Assembly: GCA_044442865.1 (NCBI GenBank)
Contig: JBISJU010000001.1
Coordinates: 31,402-95,401 of the forward strand
Reading direction: 5' to 3'
Length of the DNA stretch: 64,000 nucleotides
DNA from: Candidatus Makana argininalis
GTDB taxonomy: Bacteria; Pseudomonadota; Gammaproteobacteria; Enterobacterales; Enterobacteriaceae
Below the pieces are notes generated by a model, which worked only from the letters and a program-made list of their open reading frames with translations, searched no databases and had not been told where the DNA came from. The translations under genes were made by a program, and so were the position numbers. Below, piece after piece: positions 2,746 through 56,262 of this stretch; the stretch's first letter is position 1; each line of letters begins with the position of its first letter.

Positions 2746-4005
2746 TTATTTTCCTTTCATCATGTTAAAAAATTCAAAATTATTATTTGTCATTGATAAT
2801 TTACTAATTAAAAATTCTATTGCTTCTATTTCCATCATTGGATGAATAATTTTTCTCAAAATCCACATTTTTTGTAATTCTTCTTTTGTTGTAAGTAACT
2901 CCTCCTTTCTAGTACCAGATCTATTATAATCAATAGCAGGAAAAACTCTTTTTTCCGCGATTTTACGTGAAAGATGTAATTCCATATTACCGGTACCTTT
3001 AAACTCTTCATAAATAATTTCATCCATTTTAGAACCAGTATCTATCAAAGCTGTTGCTATGATTGTTAAACTTCCTCCTTCTTCCATATTACGTGCAGCT
3101 CCAAAAAATCTTTTTGGTCTGTAAAGAGCATTTGAATCAATACCCCCTGTTAATACTTTTCCTGAAGTTGGCACTATATTATTATAAGCTCTAGCTAATC
3201 TAGTAATGGAATCTAATAAAATAATTACATTTTTATTATGTTCTACTAACCTTTTAGCTTTTTCTATAACCATTTCAGAAACTTGAACATGTCTTGATGA
3301 CGGTTCGTCAAAAGTTGATGCTATTACTTCACCTTTAACTAGTCTTTTCATTTCTGTAACTTCTTCAGGACGTTCATCTATTAATAAAACAATAAGAATA
3401 CTATCTGAATGATTATAAGAAATACTTTGCGCTATTTTTTGCAAAAGAATTGTTTTACCAGCTTTAGGTGGTGCTACTATTAAACCACGTTGTCCTCTTC
3501 CAATTGGAGATGCTAAATCTAATATTCTTGCAGTTAAATCTTCTTTGGATCCATTACCTCTTTCCATTTTTAATCTATTATTTGCATGAAGAGGTGTTAA
3601 ATTTTCAAATAAAATTTTTTTATTTGAATTTTCAGGTTTATCATAATTAACTTTATTAATTTTTAATAAAGCAAAATAACGTTCTCCATCTTTAGGAGGT
3701 CTTATTTTTCCATAAATAGTATCACCAGTTCTTAAACTAAAACGTCTTATTTGACTTGGAGAAACATAAATATCATCTGGTCCAGCAAGATACGAACTAT
3801 CACTGGATCTTAAAAAACCAAAACCATCTTGCAATATTTCTAATACTCCGTCACCAAATATATCTTTTCCTCTTTTAGAATATGTTTTTAAAATTGAAAA
3901 TATTATATCTTGTTTACTCATTTTAGATAAATTTCCTAAACCCATATTTTCACCTATTAAATCTCTTTCTAAAATAGGTGTGTTCTTTAATTCTGTTAGA
4001 TTCAT
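2746..4005 (-). CDS. rho: transcription termination factor Rho
   Basis: 419-aa ORF, near-identical to E. coli Rho over long stretches ([24 protein letters not shown] Walker [12 protein letters not shown]). trxA lies immediately upstream, as in E. coli. Confidence 0.97.
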
Positions 4006-6768: not shown

Positions 6769-7908
6769 ATGAATTTAAATAAATTACCTAAAATAAGTTT
6801 ATATATACATATACCATGGTGTATTAAAAAATGTCATTATTGTGATTTTAATAGTTTTTTAATAAAAAAAAAAATACCATATAAACAGTATATTAAAAAT
6901 TTATTAGAAGATTTAGATAATGATATTAAATATATTTCAGGAAGAAATATTCATACAATATTTATTGGTGGGGGTACTCCAAGTTTATTTCCTTTAAAAT
7001 CAATTAAAATTCTTATTAAAGAAATTAAAAAAAGATTTTTAATATCCGATAAAACTGAAATAACATTAGAAACTAATCCTGAAAGTTCATCAAATAATTT
7101 GTTTTATGAATATAAAAAAATAGGTATAAATAGAATTTCAATTGGTATTCAAACTTTAGATAAAAATAAACTTTTTAATTTAGGTAGAATTAATAATCAT
7201 TATAATATAAATTTAATATGTAAACTAATTTATTCAAAATATATTAAAAATTTTAATTTTGATTTAATGTATGGATTACCAAATCAGTCTATTAGTGAAT
7301 CAATTAAAGATTTAAATAACATTATTTATTCTAAACCTGATCATATATCTTGGTATCAATTAACTATCGAACCGAATACATATTTTTATTATGTTCCACC
7401 AATTTTACCAAATGAAAATAATATTTGGAAAATGTATAAATTAGGTAATAATATTTTAAAAAAATCAGGTTATCTTCAATATGAAATTTCAAGTTATGCA
7501 AAAGAAAAAAAATTTAGATGTAAACATAATATTAATTATTGGAAATTTGGAGATTATATTGGAATAGGTTGTGGATCTCATGGTAAAATTACATTAAAAG
7601 ATGGAACAGTAATAAGAATCATGAAATCACGTAATATTATTAATTATATGAATAAAAATTATATATATAAAATATATAATGTGGATTATAATAATTTAAT
7701 TATAGAATATTTTATGAATAGGTTTAGACTATCAGAATCTATTCCCCGTTCTGAATTTTATTATTATACAGGAATAAAAGAGATAAATATAAGAAAATCA
7801 ATAAATAAGGCAATAAAAAAAAAATATATCAAGGAAAATGATCTTTATTGGACTATAACAGATTTTGGTAAATTATTTCTTAATTTTCTTATTGAATTAT
7901 TTATTTAA
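6769..7908 (+). CDS. hemW: radical-SAM heme chaperone HemW (YggW, HemN-like)
   Basis: 379-aa ORF with the CxxxCxxC radical-SAM cluster motif (PWCIKKCHYCDF), then GGGTPS. Length equals E. coli YggW. Confidence 0.85.
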   Translation: MNLNKLPKISLYIHIPWCIKKCHYCDFNSFLIKKKIPYKQYIKNLLEDLDNDIKYISGRNIHTIFIGGGTPSLFPLKSIKILIKEIKKRFLISDKTEITLETNPESSSNNLFYEYKKIGINRISIGIQTLDKNKLFNLGRINNHYNINLICKLIYSKYIKNFNFDLMYGLPNQSISESIKDLNNIIYSKPDHISWYQLTIEPNTYFYYVPPILPNENNIWKMYKLGNNILKKSGYLQYEISSYAKEKKFRCKHNINYWKFGDYIGIGCGSHGKITLKDGTVIRIMKSRNIINYMNKNYIYKIYNVDYNNLIIEYFMNRFRLSESIPRSEFYYYTGIKEINIRKSINKAIKKKYIKENDLYWTITDFGKLFLNFLIELFI

Positions 7909-8013
7909 AAAATAAATTTTTTAAATAAATAATTTGATATATTAAATATTTTAAATTTATTTATCAAATATTACATCATATTAATAATAATTAACAAATT
8001 TATTAATACAACT

Positions 8014-24341: not shown

Positions 24342-24405
24342 AATATTTATAATACTATTGAAAAATAAACATAAATATTTATTTTTCAATAGTATTATAA
24401 ATATT
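24342..24405. repeat. perfect 28-bp inverted repeat with an 8-nt loop between rpsU and dnaG
   Basis: Base-by-base pairing of 24342-24369 with 24378-24405 has no mismatch. The loop is CATAAATA. Confidence 0.9.
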
Positions 24406-28724: not shown

Positions 28725-28852
28725 TATAAATTACTCATTATATAAATTTAATTTAAATTAATAATTAAATTTAAAAATATATTTTATTTATTAATTTCTT
28801 ATTGGATATAAATAATAATTATTTTTTAAAAATTAAAATTATTTATTTTTAA

Positions 28853-28916
28853 AAATTTAAACATTATTTATATAATTAAATAATATAATTTAATTATATA
28901 AATAATGTTTAAATTT
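28853..28916. repeat. perfect 29-bp inverted repeat with a 6-nt loop in the rne/rluC divergent intergenic region
   Basis: 28853-28881 pairs without mismatch with 28888-28916. The loop is AATATA. Confidence 0.9.
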
Positions 28917-28938
28917 AATCACTTTTATAAAATTAACT

Positions 28939-29886
28939 ATGATTATAAAAAAATTTAAATTAATTAATGTTTCTTATGAAAAATCTAATCAAAGAATAGA
29001 TAATTTTTTAATTCATTATTTTAAAAAAATATCAAAAAATTTATTATATTTGTTTATTCGTAAAGGTTTAATTTTAGTTAATAATAAAAAAATAAACCAA
29101 AAATATAAAATAAATTATAATGATATAATAAAAATTCCAGAAATAATTTTAAAAAAAAAAAAAAAAATAAAAATTATAAATAACATAAAAATTGATTTAT
29201 TAAAAAAATCGATAATTTATGAAGATAATTATCTTATTATTATTAATAAACCATCTGAAATATCAGTACATGGATGTTTAAATTCAAGAATAGGTATTAT
29301 TGAATATTTTAGAATTTTACGTCCTAAATTAAGTTTTTTAGAATTAGTGCATAGATTAGATAAAGAAACATCAGGAGTATTAATTTTGGCAAAAAAAAAA
29401 ACAATTTTATGTGATTTACATAATCAATTAAGAGATAAAAAAATCAAAAAAGAATATTTAGCTTTAGTTAAAGGTCGTTGGAATAAAAATATTAAATATG
29501 TATCTCAACCATTATTAAAAAAAAAAAAAAATAATAATAAACATATGGTAAAAATTAATAGTTCAGGAAAAAAATCTAAAACATTATTTAATGTAAAAGA
29601 AAGATTTAAAATAGCAACTTTACTAAAAGTTATTCCATTAACTGGAAGAACTCATCAAATTAGAGTTCATGCCTTATTTGCAGGACATCCTATAGCATTT
29701 GATAATAGATATGGTGATAAAAGTTTTGATAAAAAATTAAAACTGTGTGGACTTAAAAGTTTATTTTTACATGCAAGTTCAATTATTTTTAATCATCCTG
29801 TTAATCATAAAATCATAAATATAAAAGCTGAATTAAATTTAAAAATGAAAGAATGTATAATATATTTACGTGAATATAATAAATAA
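28939..29886 (+). CDS. rluC: 23S rRNA pseudouridine synthase RluC
   Basis: 315-aa ORF. RluA-family catalytic motif HRLDKETSGVL and GRTHQIRVH. Position is divergent from rne. Contains in-frame A17 and A15 tracts. Confidence 0.88.
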   Translation: MIIKKFKLINVSYEKSNQRIDNFLIHYFKKISKNLLYLFIRKGLILVNNKKINQKYKINYNDIIKIPEIILKKKKKIKIINNIKIDLLKKSIIYEDNYLIIINKPSEISVHGCLNSRIGIIEYFRILRPKLSFLELVHRLDKETSGVLILAKKKTILCDLHNQLRDKKIKKEYLALVKGRWNKNIKYVSQPLLKKKKNNNKHMVKINSSGKKSKTLFNVKERFKIATLLKVIPLTGRTHQIRVHALFAGHPIAFDNRYGDKSFDKKLKLCGLKSLFLHASSIIFNHPVNHKIINIKAELNLKMKECIIYLREYNK

Positions 29887-32369: not shown

Positions 32370-32588
32370 ATGTCTAAAAATCACAATTTCGAAATAAAAG
32401 GCACTGTTATTGAAACATTACCAAATACTATGTTTAAAGTAGAGTTAGATAATAAACATATTGTAATTGCTCATATTTCAGGTAAAATGAGAAAAAATTA
32501 TATAAGAATATTAAATGGAGATAAAGTTATAGTTGAGGTTACACCATATGATATAAATAAAGGAAGAATAATATTTAGGAATAAATAA
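32370..32588 (+). CDS. infA: translation initiation factor IF-1
   Basis: 72-aa [41 protein letters not shown] is nearly identical to E. coli IF1. Confidence 0.96.
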
Positions 32589-32683
32589 ATCATTTATAAA
32601 ACCAAATTATTTAAATAATAAAATTATTTTTTTAAAAAAATAATTTTATTATTTAAATAATTTGGTTTTATAAATGATTTATT
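32584..32683. repeat. 100-bp perfect loopless palindrome (two 50-bp arms, centre T7/A7)
   Basis: Every position p in 32584-32633 is complementary to position 65267-p. The right arm encodes the last ~19 codons of tsaB. The left arm starts inside the last sense codon of infA. Confidence 0.95.
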
Positions 32684-33310
32684 ATCATATTCTTTTCTAA
32701 TATATTTATTTAACGCAATAGGTATCATATCTTTTGCTTTTGGAAAATTGTATTTTCCAGAAAATATATTGATTTTTTTATTTAATTTAAATGTTATATT
32801 TTTCCATCCTATTCCAGATATAGACCAAAAACCTTTTAAATTTAAAAAAATATTTTCTATTTTTTTTATTTTTAAAAAAAATTCTTGATTATTTAATTTC
32901 CATATATTTTTTTTACGTTGATATTCAGCCCAATAAAATTCTCCTATGTTGGATTTTATCAATGTTAGTACTTTACATGATCCTGTTTTTCTCCATGCTC
33001 CCTCAGCCAAAGTGTTTAAATTAGAAACACCAATTATAGGTATGTTTTGTGATATTGATAATCCATATGCAATTCCTATCCCAATTCTTATTCCATTAAA
33101 ACTCCCCGGTCCTTTGCTAACAGCAATTATATTTATTTTTTTTAAATTCATGTCAAATTTATATAATAATCTATCTATCATTTTAAGAATATATTTCATA
33201 TGTGCATAAGGTGAAATTATAAAATAATCTAAAATAATATTTTTGTAATTCATAATTGCAACTGAACAAGCCTCTGTGGAAGTATTTATAGATAAAATAT
33301 TAATTGACAT
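32624..33310 (-). CDS. tsaB: tRNA threonylcarbamoyladenosine biosynthesis protein TsaB (YeaZ)
   Basis: The ORF runs to 33328, but the second ATG (33310) is preceded by AAAAGG and gives MSINILSINTSTEACSVAIM, matching E. coli MRILAIDTATEACSVALW. The C-terminus PNYLNNKIIFLKK matches PVYLRNEVAWKKL. Confidence 0.85.
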   Translation of the reverse strand: MSINILSINTSTEACSVAIMNYKNIILDYFIISPYAHMKYILKMIDRLLYKFDMNLKKINIIAVSKGPGSFNGIRIGIGIAYGLSISQNIPIIGVSNLNTLAEGAWRKTGSCKVLTLIKSNIGEFYWAEYQRKKNIWKLNNQEFFLKIKKIENIFLNLKGFWSISGIGWKNITFKLNKKINIFSGKYNFPKAKDMIPIALNKYIRKEYDNKSFIKPNYLNNKIIFLKK

Positions 33311-33378
33311 ATAAAACCTTTTAATCATTTTATTTATATATTAAATTAATATATAATATTTATTAATCATAATTTTAT

Positions 33379-33406
33379 AAAAAACCGGGTAAACTAACCC
33401 CGGTTT
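33379..33406 (-). terminator. intrinsic terminator downstream of manZ
   Basis: The minus-strand RNA reads AAACCGGG-GUUAGUUUA-CCCGGUUU followed by further U residues. It has a GC core in otherwise pure A/T DNA and lies 9 nt after the manZ stop. Confidence 0.6.
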
Positions 33407-36987: not shown

Positions 36988-38063
36988 ATTTTTTCCTTAT
37001 AACATTATATTAAAAATAATCGTTTTTTAAATAAAACCAATGTATGATTTTTTATCATATGCTATTATTTATATATATCATATATTTTAAATTTAGATTT
37101 TTTACGTTTATAAATATAATAAAAATATGTTTTCATTTAATTTAAACAATTAAAGTATTTATATATTATATTTATAATATTAATATATTTTTAAAATTTT
37201 TAAATTTTTTTTTTATGTTTGTTAATTAACACTTATTTATAATATAATTATTTGTATCTCTATATGTTTAAATAACTAAATCAAATAAATCATCACTGAA
37301 ATTAAAATATTTTATTAAAAATTAAAATTTTTAAATACTTTAGTATATATAATTATATTAAATATATTTAATTTTTAAATTTGTTTAGTAATATTAAAAA
37401 TATATAATTTATTGACACTGACTAATAACTATAATTATTTTATAATCATTATAACATATTTATATCTTTTAAAAAATGAAATATATTTAATTTATTCATA
37501 TATTATTAAAATTTAATTATATTAAAAATATAAATTAATAATTATAAACATATCAAAATATTTTATACTATTATTAATTTTTTTAAAAATAAACTTTTTT
37601 TAACTAATATTATACTAATTTTAATTAAATTAAAAATTTTTTATAAATAACAAAATATTTTGATATATAATTTTTTGATTTACTAAAAATATTGAATATA
37701 AATATGTTTTCAATATTTTTTTTAATATATTTTGTAAATAAATTAAAAGAATTACTATAAATCATTTTAATACATATTTATTTAATATATTTAAAATATA
37801 AATTTTTAATAAATTAATAATTTATAATAGTTATAAATTATTAATGTATATATTTTTTTTAAACAAAAATTAATTTTTGTTTTCAAATTTTTTTATAAAT
37901 TTTTAAAATATTAAATTTCATTTTAATTATAAATATAAAATAATATAAATTATTTTAAAATAACTTTAATTTAATTTAAATTATTTAATTTATAATAAAT
38001 AAATTTTATTTTATTTGTAAAATTTAAAAAATTAAATAAATTCATATAAATATTTTATAATAT

Positions 38064-40344: not shown

Positions 40345-41374
40345 TTAATTTAAAATACAAAATGGAGTTTTTATGTTACAAAAAATATAAATTATATTTA
40401 AAATATCATTCCATGCTTTGTATTTATAATCTGTTTTAATTAAAAATTCTATTTTACGAATTAAAGTTAATATTTTAAATAAATCAAACATTGACATATT
40501 AAATATTAATTTTTTATAAATATTTTTTAGTTTATTACAATAAATGTTGTTAATTTTAAAAATCATTTTTAATTTAGTGTTATTTATTTTTTTTTTCATA
40601 TTTATTAATTTAATAATACTATTTTGAATAATTCTAATTATTAAAATTGGTTCAATTAATTCATATTTGAATTTGTTTAAAATTTTATTTAAATTATTAA
40701 TATTTCCATACATAATTAAATATATTAATTTATATGAATTAACTTCACAAATATTATCTAATGAATATAATAAAAATTTTAAGTTTATCAATTTTTTATT
40801 AAAAATTATTTCAAGACTGTTTAATGATTTATTAATTAATAATAAATTTCCATCATAATAATTATATAAATAATCTAAAGCATTATAATTTATTAATATT
40901 TGTTTTTTTTTAATAATTAATTTTAATAACTTAAATTTATTATTTTTATTTATATCAGAACAATTAATTATTATTATATTTTTACAAATTAATTTTAACC
41001 ATAAGGAATTTAAAATTAATTTGTTTAAAACATTAATTTCAAAAATTATTAATATATTTTCTTTTATATTTAAAATTAAATCTTTTATTTTTTTGTCTAT
41101 TGTATAATTGTATATGTTTTTATTAAATTTTATTAAAATTATTTTATTTTCATAAAATAAATTTTTTTCATTTATTGAAAAAAAAATATTTTTCCAATCT
41201 GTTTTAAAATTTATTAAAAAAGATAATATTTTTTTAAATTTTTTTTTTTGATAATTTAATAATATTTTTTTTACTTTCTTCTAATAAAAATTTATTTTCA
41301 CCATATATTAAGTAAAATTTATTAAAATATTTTTTTGAATTTTTAATTAAATCATATGTAAATATTGTAATCAT
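40345..41374 (-). CDS. holA: DNA polymerase III delta subunit, interrupted by a frameshift in an A11 tract
   Basis: The minus strand from ATG 41374 reads MITIFTYDLIKNSKKYFNKFYLIYGENKFLLEESKKNIIKLS, then A11 (T11 on the + strand, 41239-41249). The shifted frame FKKILSFLINFKTDWKNIFF...YYDGNLLLINKSL runs uninterrupted into the 148-aa ORF. The 1030-nt span is 343 codons + 1 nt. Position is downstream of leuS, as in E. coli. Confidence 0.8.
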
Positions 41375-45376: not shown

Positions 45377-45474
45377 TTTTTTTAAAAATTTGTAATATTT
45401 ATAATATAATTATATATTAATTTATAAAAATTAATATATAATTATATTATAAATATTACAAATTTTTAAAAAAA
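45377..45474. repeat. 98-bp perfect inverted repeat (47-bp arms, 4-nt loop) filling the eno/sufA divergent intergenic region
   Basis: Every position p in 45377-45423 is complementary to position 90851-p (45428-45474). The loop is ATAA. Confidence 0.95.
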
Positions 45475-51067: not shown

Positions 51068-51093
51068 TAAATGGCGCATATATGCGCCATTTA
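51068..51093. terminator. GC-core hairpin terminator between the convergent genes sufE and lpp
   Basis: A perfect 13-bp-arm palindrome, TAAATGGCGCATA/TATGCGCCATTTA. It is followed by UUUU on the lpp (minus) transcript. It is the only GC-rich element in this spacer. Confidence 0.65.
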
Positions 51094-55164: not shown

Positions 55165-56262
55165 TTAAATATTAATATTAATTATTTTAAATTTTTCTAA
55201 AAAATTTAATTTACATAAATAAAATTTATTTATTATTTTATCTGATAATTTATAAAAATTTTTTATTATCTTTTTTTTTTCAAAAATAAAATTTTTATCA
55301 AAAAAAATACTATTTAAAATTCTTAAAAATATATTTTCAACCCATATTTTATATGAAATATTTGTAATTAATTTATTTAAAATACAAGATGTAAATTTAT
55401 TAACTTTACTAATTTTATATGATACAAAAATAGAATATTTAAAAGAATAACCTGTGGTATTATTTAACAAACCAGCTCTCAATCCACTACAAGGAATTTT
55501 TATATTTTTAATAAAAAAATTAAAATTATTATATATATAAATAGGAATTATCCCTTTTTCTTCTTTTCTAATATTTTTGATATTAAAGTTATTTTTTTTT
55601 AAAAATTTTAATATATTACTGTTATTAATTTTAGTATTTAAATTTAAATTATTTAAGTAAATTGTATCTTCAATAAAAATTGAATATGGAGAAATTGGTA
55701 AAATATATAAAAATCTATATCCATTTTTTTGATTAATTTTAGAATCTATAATAATTGGATTTTTAATATTATGATTTATATTAAGTTGAATTTCTTGACC
55801 AAAAAAATATTGAAAATAATATTTTATATTATTATTTTTTTTATAACCACGGCCGTCAATTATTATTTCTGCATTTAATATTAAATTATTATTTAATTTT
55901 AAAGTATGATCACTTAAAATACTAACAACATACTTAAATAATATTTTTTTTTTAAAAAATTTATTTATAAATTTATAAAATTTATATGAAGTAATAGTTA
56001 AATATTCTTTTTTTATTAATCTTCTATATTTATTAAAATTTACAATATATGTAGGCCAAAAATAATCAATAATTGGCAATAACCAATTATTTTTAATTAA
56101 TAAATTATTGGTAAGGTGAAAAGACCATTTTTTGTTGTTTTTTATATTTTTTTTTTCAATTAATAAAATATTTAACTCGGGAAAATATTGTTTTAAACGA
56201 ATAGCAATAAGTCCATTAGATAATCCCACACCGATAATAATTATACTGAAATATAATTTCAT
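55165..56262 (-). CDS. crtY: lycopene beta-cyclase, CrtY type (stand-alone)
   Basis: 365-aa intact ORF, collinear with Pantoea CrtY as I remember it: IIGVGLSNGLIAIRL / LVGAGLANGLIALRL; WSFH; WPTYIVNF / WPDYQVRF; IIDGRGY / VIDGRGY; QNGYRFLYILPISP..IEDT / QNGYRFVYSLPLSP..IEDT; CSGLRAGLLNNTTGYS / CSGLRAGLFHPTTGYS. Confidence 0.8.
   Translation of the reverse strand: MKLYFSIIIIGVGLSNGLIAIRLKQYFPELNILLIEKKNIKNNKKWSFHLTNNLLIKNNWLLPIIDYFWPTYIVNFNKYRRLIKKEYLTITSYKFYKFINKFFKKKILFKYVVSILSDHTLKLNNNLILNAEIIIDGRGYKKNNNIKYYFQYFFGQEIQLNINHNIKNPIIIDSKINQKNGYRFLYILPISPYSIFIEDTIYLNNLNLNTKINNSNILKFLKKNNFNIKNIRKEEKGIIPIYIYNNFNFFIKNIKIPCSGLRAGLLNNTTGYSFKYSIFVSYKISKVNKFTSCILNKLITNISYKIWVENIFLRILNSIFFDKNFIFEKKKIIKNFYKLSDKIINKFYLCKLNFLEKFKIININI

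Follow-up and report, generated by a model that had tools for sequence, protein, structure and literature searches.

In the genome of Candidatus Makana argininalis, a Morganella-like co-symbiont in Hawaiian Pariaconus psyllids (PMC11425488), the gene for IF1 (infA) and the gene for TsaB (tsaB) converge on a 100-bp palindrome, one arm of which is coding sequence. The genome is a metagenome-assembled genome with a 277,257-bp contig and 18.6% G+C, and the analysis presented here concerns a 64,000-nt stretch of it (the window). Positions 32584-32633 and 32634-32683 are exact reverse complements of each other (50/50 pairs), without a loop and with a T7/A7 centre. Perfect pairing ends on both sides, after GAATA on the left and before ATCAT on the right; in RNA and DNA folding, 32577-32583 then pairs with 32688-32694 across a 4-nt bulge (32684-32687). 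The left arm begins at base 2 of the last infA sense codon and comprises the last 2 bases of that codon, the infA stop (32586-32588), a 35-nt spacer, and the last 10 nt of tsaB with its stop (32624-32626); both stop codons are inside the stem. The right arm plus the 10 nt beyond the centre encodes 19 residues and the stop, which are collinear by BLASTP with the Enterobacterales TsaB tail ..QPVYLRNEVTWKK, and the gene matches TIGR03725. The right arm is therefore tsaB coding DNA and the left arm its inverted copy, as was proposed in the initial annotation of this stretch, which had also correctly placed the start of the left arm in the last infA codon and the infA stop within it. Coordinates are collected in the table.

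Table. Features of the infA/tsaB junction, its counterparts in related genomes, and the long palindromes of the window.
Feature	Position	Strand	Perfect arms	Loop	Remarks
infA (IF1, 72 aa, full length)	32370..32588	+			TIGR00008, 114 bits
tsaB (234 aa from first ATG)	32624..33328	-			TIGR03725, 142.6 bits
infA/tsaB palindrome	32584-32683		50 nt	none	convergent gene ends
Left arm	32584..32633	.			inverted copy of tsaB 3' end, 50/50 complementary
Right arm	32634..32683	-			tsaB codons for 16 residues + (L); TIGR03725
Centre of symmetry T7/A7	32627..32640	.			encodes F-L-K-K in tsaB
Self-complementary 14-nt core ATTATTTAAATAAT, left arm	32606..32619	.			mirror of tsaB N-Y-L-N-N codons; unchanged in all relatives
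Same 14-nt core within tsaB (N-Y-L-N-N codons)	32648..32661	-			alignment with relatives
Outer imperfect extension, left	32577..32583	+			AGGAATA, infA codons AGG AAT A
Outer imperfect extension, right	32688..32694	-			TATTCTT, tsaB codons
JBPPLQ, infA/tsaB junction			23 nt	1 nt	
JBISJT, infA/tsaB junction			20 nt	15 nt	
JBISJS, infA/tsaB junction			19 nt		or 34 nt at 82%
JBISJR (9B), infA/tsaB junction					weak remnant, 19 nt at 79%
eno/sufA palindrome	45377-45474		47 nt	4 nt	fills spacer between divergent starts
rne/rluC palindrome	28853-28916		29 nt	6 nt	between divergent starts
rpsU-dnaG spacer palindrome	24342-24405		28 nt	8 nt	31 nt at 97%, one mismatch
hemW palindrome	7895-7934		19 nt	2 nt	left arm contains hemW stop codon

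At the base frequencies of the window ~1e-18 such sites are expected (64000 x 0.348^50), and in pure A/T sequence the expectation is ~6e-11. A chance baseline was obtained from 30 Markov-1 simulations of the window, in each of which the longest perfect hairpin arm was scored; this arm measured 12-16 nt, against 50 nt here. Both the arithmetic and the simulated maximum uphold the earlier statement that a perfect loopless palindrome of 50+50 nt lies far beyond chance. Folded as RNA, the hairpin reaches ~-50 kcal/mol on each strand (z = -13 to -16), which agrees with the earlier proposal that both convergent transcripts would form it, and as single-stranded DNA it reaches -43.9 kcal/mol. No further copy of the arm sequence is found in the 64-kb window at <=3 mismatches, strand composition shows no switch at 32.6 kb, and a search of Rfam at gathering thresholds returned five tRNAs only and no RNA family over the palindrome.

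Four sister genomes were used for comparison: JBISJR (isolate 9B), JBPPLQ, JBISJS (isolate 16A, with 'hina' in the contig name) and JBISJT (isolate 25). Among the sequence labels used below, L011 belongs to 9B, L003 and L013 to JBISJS, and L014 to JBISJT, while L017 is the eno-sufA region of JBISJS. Gene order is the same in the window and its sisters across the 20.7 kb compared and across 14.3 kb around eno-sufA, DNA identity to the window is 86-87% (20.7 kb), and the window is the most divergent of the five lineages in an unrooted tree. Third codon positions (81-83% identical between the window and its relatives) and non-palindromic spacers (77-81%) served as a yardstick for neutral sites.

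At the infA/tsaB junction, an inverted repeat that pairs the spacer with the same tsaB codons is found in three of the four relatives, with arms of 19-23 nt and fold z-scores of -2.5 to -5.5. The remnant hairpin in 9B has a fold z-score that is not significant. Judged from these alignments, the inverted repeat at this junction is older than the split of the sampled lineages. Comparison with related strains had been named beforehand as a check on the age of the duplication; the shorter repeat in three relatives indicates that it is old, and the fourth contributes a weak remnant only. The earlier choice between a very recent event and selection overlooks the option with the best support, since the repeat is shared with relatives and orthologous long palindromes elsewhere in the genome stay perfect while their sequence changes. 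In JBISJS a synonymous CCA>CCT change in tsaB is mirrored in the spacer arm (CCTAA/TTAGG, versus CCAAA/TTTGG in the window). The loop in JBISJT (L014 10676-10690) carries ATAAATGATTT, a direct copy of the tsaB segment of other lineages at a place where its own tsaB has diverged, a hint that switches were repeated and the history more complex. Two parts of the coding sequence are self-complementary, namely ATTATTTAAATAAT (N-Y-L-N-N) and the tail ..TTATTTTTTT/AAAAAAATAA (I-F-L-K-K-stop); the TsaB segment PNYLNNKI is identical in all five genomes. As the genome is very A+T-rich, ordinary codons would supply such palindromic seeds.

The outer 13-17 nt of each arm are confined to the window lineage, and alignment of the window with all four relatives identifies the changes at these edges. 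Beside the infA stop there is a 7-nt insertion, CATTTAT, which is the reverse complement of tsaB ATAAATG. The infA codons AGA AGT (R-S in the relatives) have become AGG AAT, a synonymous change plus S71N, and together make GAATA, the reverse complement of a tsaB TATTC (32688-32692) that is common to three of the four relatives. On the other side, ATA on the + strand of tsaB has become ATT (Tyr>Asn), the reverse complement of the unvarying infA end AAT. All four changes (+CATTTAT, AGA>AGG, AGT>AAT and ATA>ATT) raise complementarity and are templatable from the opposite arm, and AGA>AGG, being A>G, goes counter to the strong A+T bias of the genome. Since E. coli IF1 has S at position 71, N71 is derived in the window. 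Clustered changes that raise complementarity are a recognised signature of quasipalindrome template-switch mutation (PMC7202029, PMC8794818).

Encroachment of the palindrome on infA has altered the gene without shortening it. It had been suggested that IF1 is three residues shorter here than in E. coli and that the duplication may have shortened infA; in fact both proteins have 72 aa and align from 1-71 to 1-71, and IF1 also has 72 aa in the four relatives, where it ends ..FRSK. Truncation or overwriting of the infA end by the duplication is thus ruled out, the only differences being S71N and the synonymous AGA>AGG. For tsaB, the TsaB protein at NCBI has 228 aa and starts from the second Met, MSINIL (about position 33310). 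The lengths of the central T- and A-runs (32627-32640) vary among the genomes (T7A7, T9A8, T7A6), and TsaB ends 4 residues earlier in three relatives, consistent with run slippage altering the tsaB tail.

Based on a census of perfect hairpins in the window, five have arms above the simulated maximum (50, 47, 29, 28 and 19 nt), and all five fall within the 13.7% of the window that is spacer. The relatives contain perfect arms of 54, 54, 42, 37, 33, 33 and 33 nt, mostly at the same spacers. The infA/tsaB palindrome is one of a class and not a lone oddity, and the different palindromes have unrelated sequences with no common motif. Long hairpins are not a mark of convergent gene ends as such, most convergent junctions in the window having none according to the spacer census. 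Loopless centres were dropped as a test, since 6 of 17 long palindromes are loopless, close to the ~4 expected by chance in A/T sequence. Literature searches turned up no relevant account of long perfect palindromes in endosymbionts, and neither palindromes nor terminators are mentioned in the Makana paper (PMC11425488).

Of the three relatives sampled at the eno-sufA spacer, two have 54-nt arms (L016 6806-6917; L017 6674-6781, the latter loopless and 108 bp long) and 9B has none. In all three genomes that have it, the palindrome starts 12-21 nt upstream of the eno start codon, and it could represent a 5' untranslated region (UTR) hairpin or a symmetric divergent promoter. In the same spacer of JBISJS (L017 6860-7000), part of the sufA 5' end (ATGATCACAAAAATTGTTATTAC...) is duplicated in tandem, and an upstream block of ~50 nt is repeated as well. 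At rluC-rne, two relatives have loopless palindromes with 33-nt arms (L012 14394-14459; L014 14358-14423), another has a different palindrome with 25-nt arms, and a decayed copy is seen in L013. The window palindrome at this site is embedded in a 72% quasipalindrome with 71-nt arms (28814-28955), 129-192 nt upstream of the rne start; this is where the autoregulatory 5' UTR of E. coli rne, which is long and structured, is located. The RNase E of the window consists of the catalytic half only (416 aa).

At rpsU-dnaG, 9B has a 37-nt loopless palindrome (L011 19228-19301) with a sequence unlike that of the window, and shorter complementary arms are readable in two other relatives. The acpP-tgt spacer has 33-nt arms in one relative and arms of 20 and 19 nt in another, and the rne-dnaB spacer has loopless 42-nt arms in one. 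Two conventional-looking hairpins with a G-C core are also retained. One follows manZ at 33382-33406 (- strand) and reads AAACCGGG/CCCGGTTT followed by a T-run; in isolate 9B it has grown to perfect arms of 25 nt. The other, TAAATGGCGCATA/TATGCGCCATTTA at 51068-51093, is located between sufE and an lpp-like gene of 77 aa (lpp/pykF).

With neutral identity at 77-83%, arms that evolve independently should mismatch at ~1 pair in 5. Within genomes, the mismatched pairs number 0/50 at infA/tsaB and 0/47, 0/54 and 0/54 at eno-sufA. In three genomes the central part of the eno-sufA palindrome is homologous; between these genomes its arms differ by several substitutions and 1-nt indels, every one of which is mirrored in the partner arm; similarly, a T/G difference and an indel between rluC-rne arms are both mirrored. 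This pattern points to continuing arm-to-arm correction in the long palindromes. If one arm is copied off the other, mirrored indels follow automatically, and they would be hard to obtain via selection on pairing.

We suggest that the infA/tsaB palindrome is probably an ancestral hairpin, seeded by AT-rich codons, that was extended and kept perfect by template switching during replication (quasipalindrome correction). The N-Y-L-N-N codons of tsaB (ATTATTTAAATAAT) and the tail I-F-L-K-K-stop, which can fold back on themselves, would have acted as seeds, and an inverted copy of ~20 nt of the tsaB end would have been established in the spacer before the lineages split. In the window lineage, the repeat would then have grown outward into both genes and been made perfect by template switching, in which the nascent strand anneals to the opposite arm, is extended on it as template, and then switches back. 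New mismatches would be repeatedly corrected by the same process, so that the arms evolve in concert, and the extreme length and perfection might be a by-product of a process acting on DNA and not of selection on RNA. Template-switch correction is established in E. coli by means of quasipalindrome reporters (PMC7202029). In proteobacteria, imperfect inverted repeats appear to be preferentially corrected to perfect ones, and perfect ones are conserved (PMC5941160), and template switching can both create and maintain RNA hairpins (PMC8794818).

Several points weigh against this explanation. The evidence for template switching is comparative, and mirrored substitutions could in principle also result from selection on pairing. 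The formal pair count at rluC-rne is weak (both sides changed in 3 pairs, a number reached in 38/500 shuffles, with n=5 and one sequence not truly homologous there), so the argument rests on the contrast between perfection within genomes and divergence between them. In the unrooted tree the window is the most divergent lineage, so the 7-nt indel beside the infA stop may instead be a deletion that occurred in the ancestor shared by the other four lineages, and among the edge changes only S71N is polarised by an outgroup.

The palindrome might be a selected RNA element, i.e. a bidirectional terminator or 3' stabiliser, with length and perfection kept by selection on pairing and long A-U stems offsetting the scarcity of G-C. 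Its position at a convergent junction and the presence of a hairpin in three of the four relatives are in keeping with this, as are the U-rich runs that follow the hairpin in L013 and L014 (tsaB strand) and in L012 (infA strand), and the retention by the genome of recognisable hairpins with a G-C core, one downstream of manZ and one in the interval from sufE to lpp/pykF. A long palindrome at rpsU-dnaG in the window and in one relative, with shorter arms in two others, can be added, given that the E. coli rpsU-dnaG-rpoD operon has an internal terminator at this spacer. Nevertheless, we regard selection on RNA as an unlikely cause of the present length and perfection. Palindromes of the same class occur between divergent starts (eno/sufA, rne/rluC), which call for no termination, they are missing from most convergent junctions, and mirrored 1-nt indels are hard to obtain from two independent selected events. 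Lengthening a stem of 37-43 bp adds little stability and costs amino-acid changes in IF1 and TsaB; furthermore, no T-run follows the present stem, and the hairpin has decayed in the 9B lineage. A DNA-level element, such as a cruciform or a symmetric binding site acting in nucleoid organisation, replication or promoter insulation, would account for the fixed spacer positions across lineages, divergent promoter regions included, for several palindromes being loopless, which is of no use to RNA folding, and for the stability of the single-strand DNA hairpin. The absence of a shared motif argues against a common binding protein, though, no strand-composition switch or other landmark is found at 32.6 kb, and individual palindromes have been lost from some lineages without the adjacent genes being visibly altered, making this a very improbable explanation.

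Zero divergence between the arms, and the restriction of their outer 13-17 nt to the window, might suggest a single, very recent snap-back inverted duplication that is perfect because it is young, with neither ongoing correction nor a function. This is quite improbable, as the inner 20-26 nt are common to relatives and hence old yet perfect, at least 3 separate edge changes are needed, and the eno/sufA and rluC/rne palindromes predate the split and are still perfect in several genomes where neutral sites are ~20% diverged. Enzymatic-fragmentation kits give fold-back reads at inverted repeats, and a shorter or imperfect repeat could have been perfected technically, by fold-back chimeras or by bubble merging in a canonical de Bruijn graph. 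The libraries of the Makana study were made with the NEB FS enzymatic-fragmentation kit for Illumina reads and assembled with MEGAHIT (PMC11425488). Contig names of the k141_NNN style in three of the four sister records also point to MEGAHIT, and every palindrome seen is shorter than the top k of 141. By contrast, the highest k values in the default list of MEGAHIT (119, 141) are longer than 100 bp and would keep the two arms apart. Within the 277-kb contig each arm continues into correct, unique flanking sequence that is syntenic with four other assemblies; in a fold-back chimera the palindrome would run on until the fragment ended, so that an internal palindrome with unique flanks argues against one. 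Palindromes with lineage-specific sequences are found at orthologous sites in five independent assemblies, and imperfect ones have been assembled as such (24342-24405 with one mismatch; the decayed rluC-rne copy of L013). An artefact is for these reasons highly unlikely. Finally, a palindromic intergenic sequence of ~100 bp brings to mind a mobile or dispersed element (REP, RPE or MITE-like), but the arm is unique, with no match in 64 kb at <=3 mismatches apart from the two arms themselves. One arm consists of conserved tsaB codons, no sequence relationship links the palindrome to the other long ones, and there is no Rfam match; this origin is effectively refuted.

Template switching as the cause of length and perfection leaves room for a role of the hairpin at transcript ends. 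A 3'-end RNA role, as an exonuclease block or a read-through barrier, is a tentative proposal that could well apply, likely mainly to the ancestral hairpin of 20-23 bp, which may have been kept for blocking 3' exonucleases or read-through into the opposite gene. U-rich tails follow the shorter stems of the relatives on the strands given above. The initial annotation had proposed a terminator or stabiliser; the location between convergent stops and the hairpin in three of four relatives support this part, but the features of a canonical intrinsic terminator are lacking in the window. Only 2 of the 50 pairs are G-C, as opposed to a G+C-rich stem of ~5-14 bp with a 3-8-nt loop. No T-run follows the stem (ATCATATT on the + strand and TATTCCTA on the - strand, each with 4 T in 8, about background for 42% T), and a consensus terminator scan of 28-38 kb, with >=3 G-C pairs required, does not call the palindrome. 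Most convergent junctions of the window are without a hairpin, two of the five long palindromes are between divergent starts, and the presence of rho in the window likewise counts against a canonical terminator. The rho gene is intact at 2746-4005 (419 aa, 699 bits) despite a genome with ~10% C, which raises the question of what Rho loads on.

If the template-switch explanation is correct, quasipalindrome correction, so far described chiefly in E. coli reporters and in short repeats, builds and maintains very long natural hairpins, and ordinary codons seed such structures in extremely AT-rich genomes. The palindromes would be a natural record of template switching, with ~100-bp structures perfect across five genomes whose neutral sites are ~20% diverged, and one of them has spread into two essential genes, changing one residue in each. 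They also call for caution in the inference of RNA structure, because apparently 'compensatory' changes need no selection here. A broader reading, which we consider doubtful, is that Makana palindromes of ~65-110 bp and almost pure A/T (infA/tsaB, eno/sufA, rne/rluC, rpsU/dnaG, acpP/tgt) are kept perfect at fixed intergenic positions by active copying between the arms and in addition used as cis-elements, whether as hairpins at 3' ends, as structures in 5' UTRs or promoters, or as cruciforms. In that case they would take the place of ordinary terminators and regulatory sites in a genome stripped of most regulators and G+C, and would constitute an undescribed class of structural element in reduced genomes, able to overwrite adjacent coding sequence. 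The question is raised whether hairpins serve as transcript ends in reduced genomes without G+C. If the palindromes are only neutral by-products, they are a well-documented curiosity.

Some further observations concern genes elsewhere in the window. Positions 36988-38063 form a spacer of ~1.08 kb, within a stretch of 13% G+C, where all four relatives encode tgt (368 aa); tblastn with a relative's Tgt found nothing, and tgt appears to have eroded completely in the window lineage while the space was kept. The holA gene (DNA polymerase III delta, 40345-41374) matches the protein of a relative in three pieces and looks frameshifted or split; it is likewise split in isolate 9B (91 + 251 aa) and intact in the other three relatives (343 aa). 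An ORF at 55165-56262 scores as lycopene beta-cyclase CrtY (TIGR01789, 275 bits), an unexpected carotenoid gene in a 277-kb nutritional symbiont.

Compared with known systems, the infA/tsaB palindrome resembles intrinsic or bidirectional terminators in lying between convergent stops, in being symmetric for both transcripts, and in having shorter counterparts in three relatives. It differs in a stem ~5x the usual length with 2/50 G-C pairs, in having no A- or T-tract, and in the inclusion of both stops in the stem, and palindromes of the same class occupy positions that are not those of terminators. Like the REP/BIME palindromes that stabilise mRNA in E. coli, it is an intergenic 3'-end hairpin that could block 3' exonucleases for both genes; unlike them, each Makana palindrome is unique, with no dispersed family, and the one at infA/tsaB is built from local coding DNA.

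In E. coli, long perfect palindromes are substrates of SbcCD. The Makana palindrome is comparably perfect and loopless and should extrude hairpins on the lagging strand, whereas its 100 bp place it close to the lethal length for E. coli or under it. The earlier claim that recBCD is retained in the window is borne out by recB, recC and recD, all found there, and no match to SbcC or SbcD was obtained among the ~34 window ORFs scanned against NCBIfam (~20 ORFs were outside the scan, and the window covers 64 of 277 kb). Plastid inverted repeats and sex-chromosome palindromes are kb to Mb long, have spacers, and are homogenised by recombination (arm-to-arm gene conversion). They too have arms that are identical within a genome and diverge between lineages, but the Makana arms are ~50 nt, too short for ordinary homologous recombination, so that template switching is the more likely route. 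The Makana genome as a whole retains recBCD and mutS (PMC11425488).

The closest likeness is to the quasipalindromes shaped by template switching (PMC7202029, PMC5941160, PMC8794818). In both, clustered changes raise complementarity and can be copied from the partner arm, repeats at orthologous sites remain perfect although their sequence alters, and mirrored changes need no selection. The Makana arms, however, reach 47-54 nt (~100-112 bp), are almost pure A/T and are often loopless, the published reporters and 'short' repeats being shorter, and they are set in a 277-kb endosymbiont genome where, at infA/tsaB, they now reach into the ends of both protein genes, with one residue changed in each. 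The mechanism is thus of a known kind; what is new is its scale, its persistence across species, and its encroachment on two coding regions.

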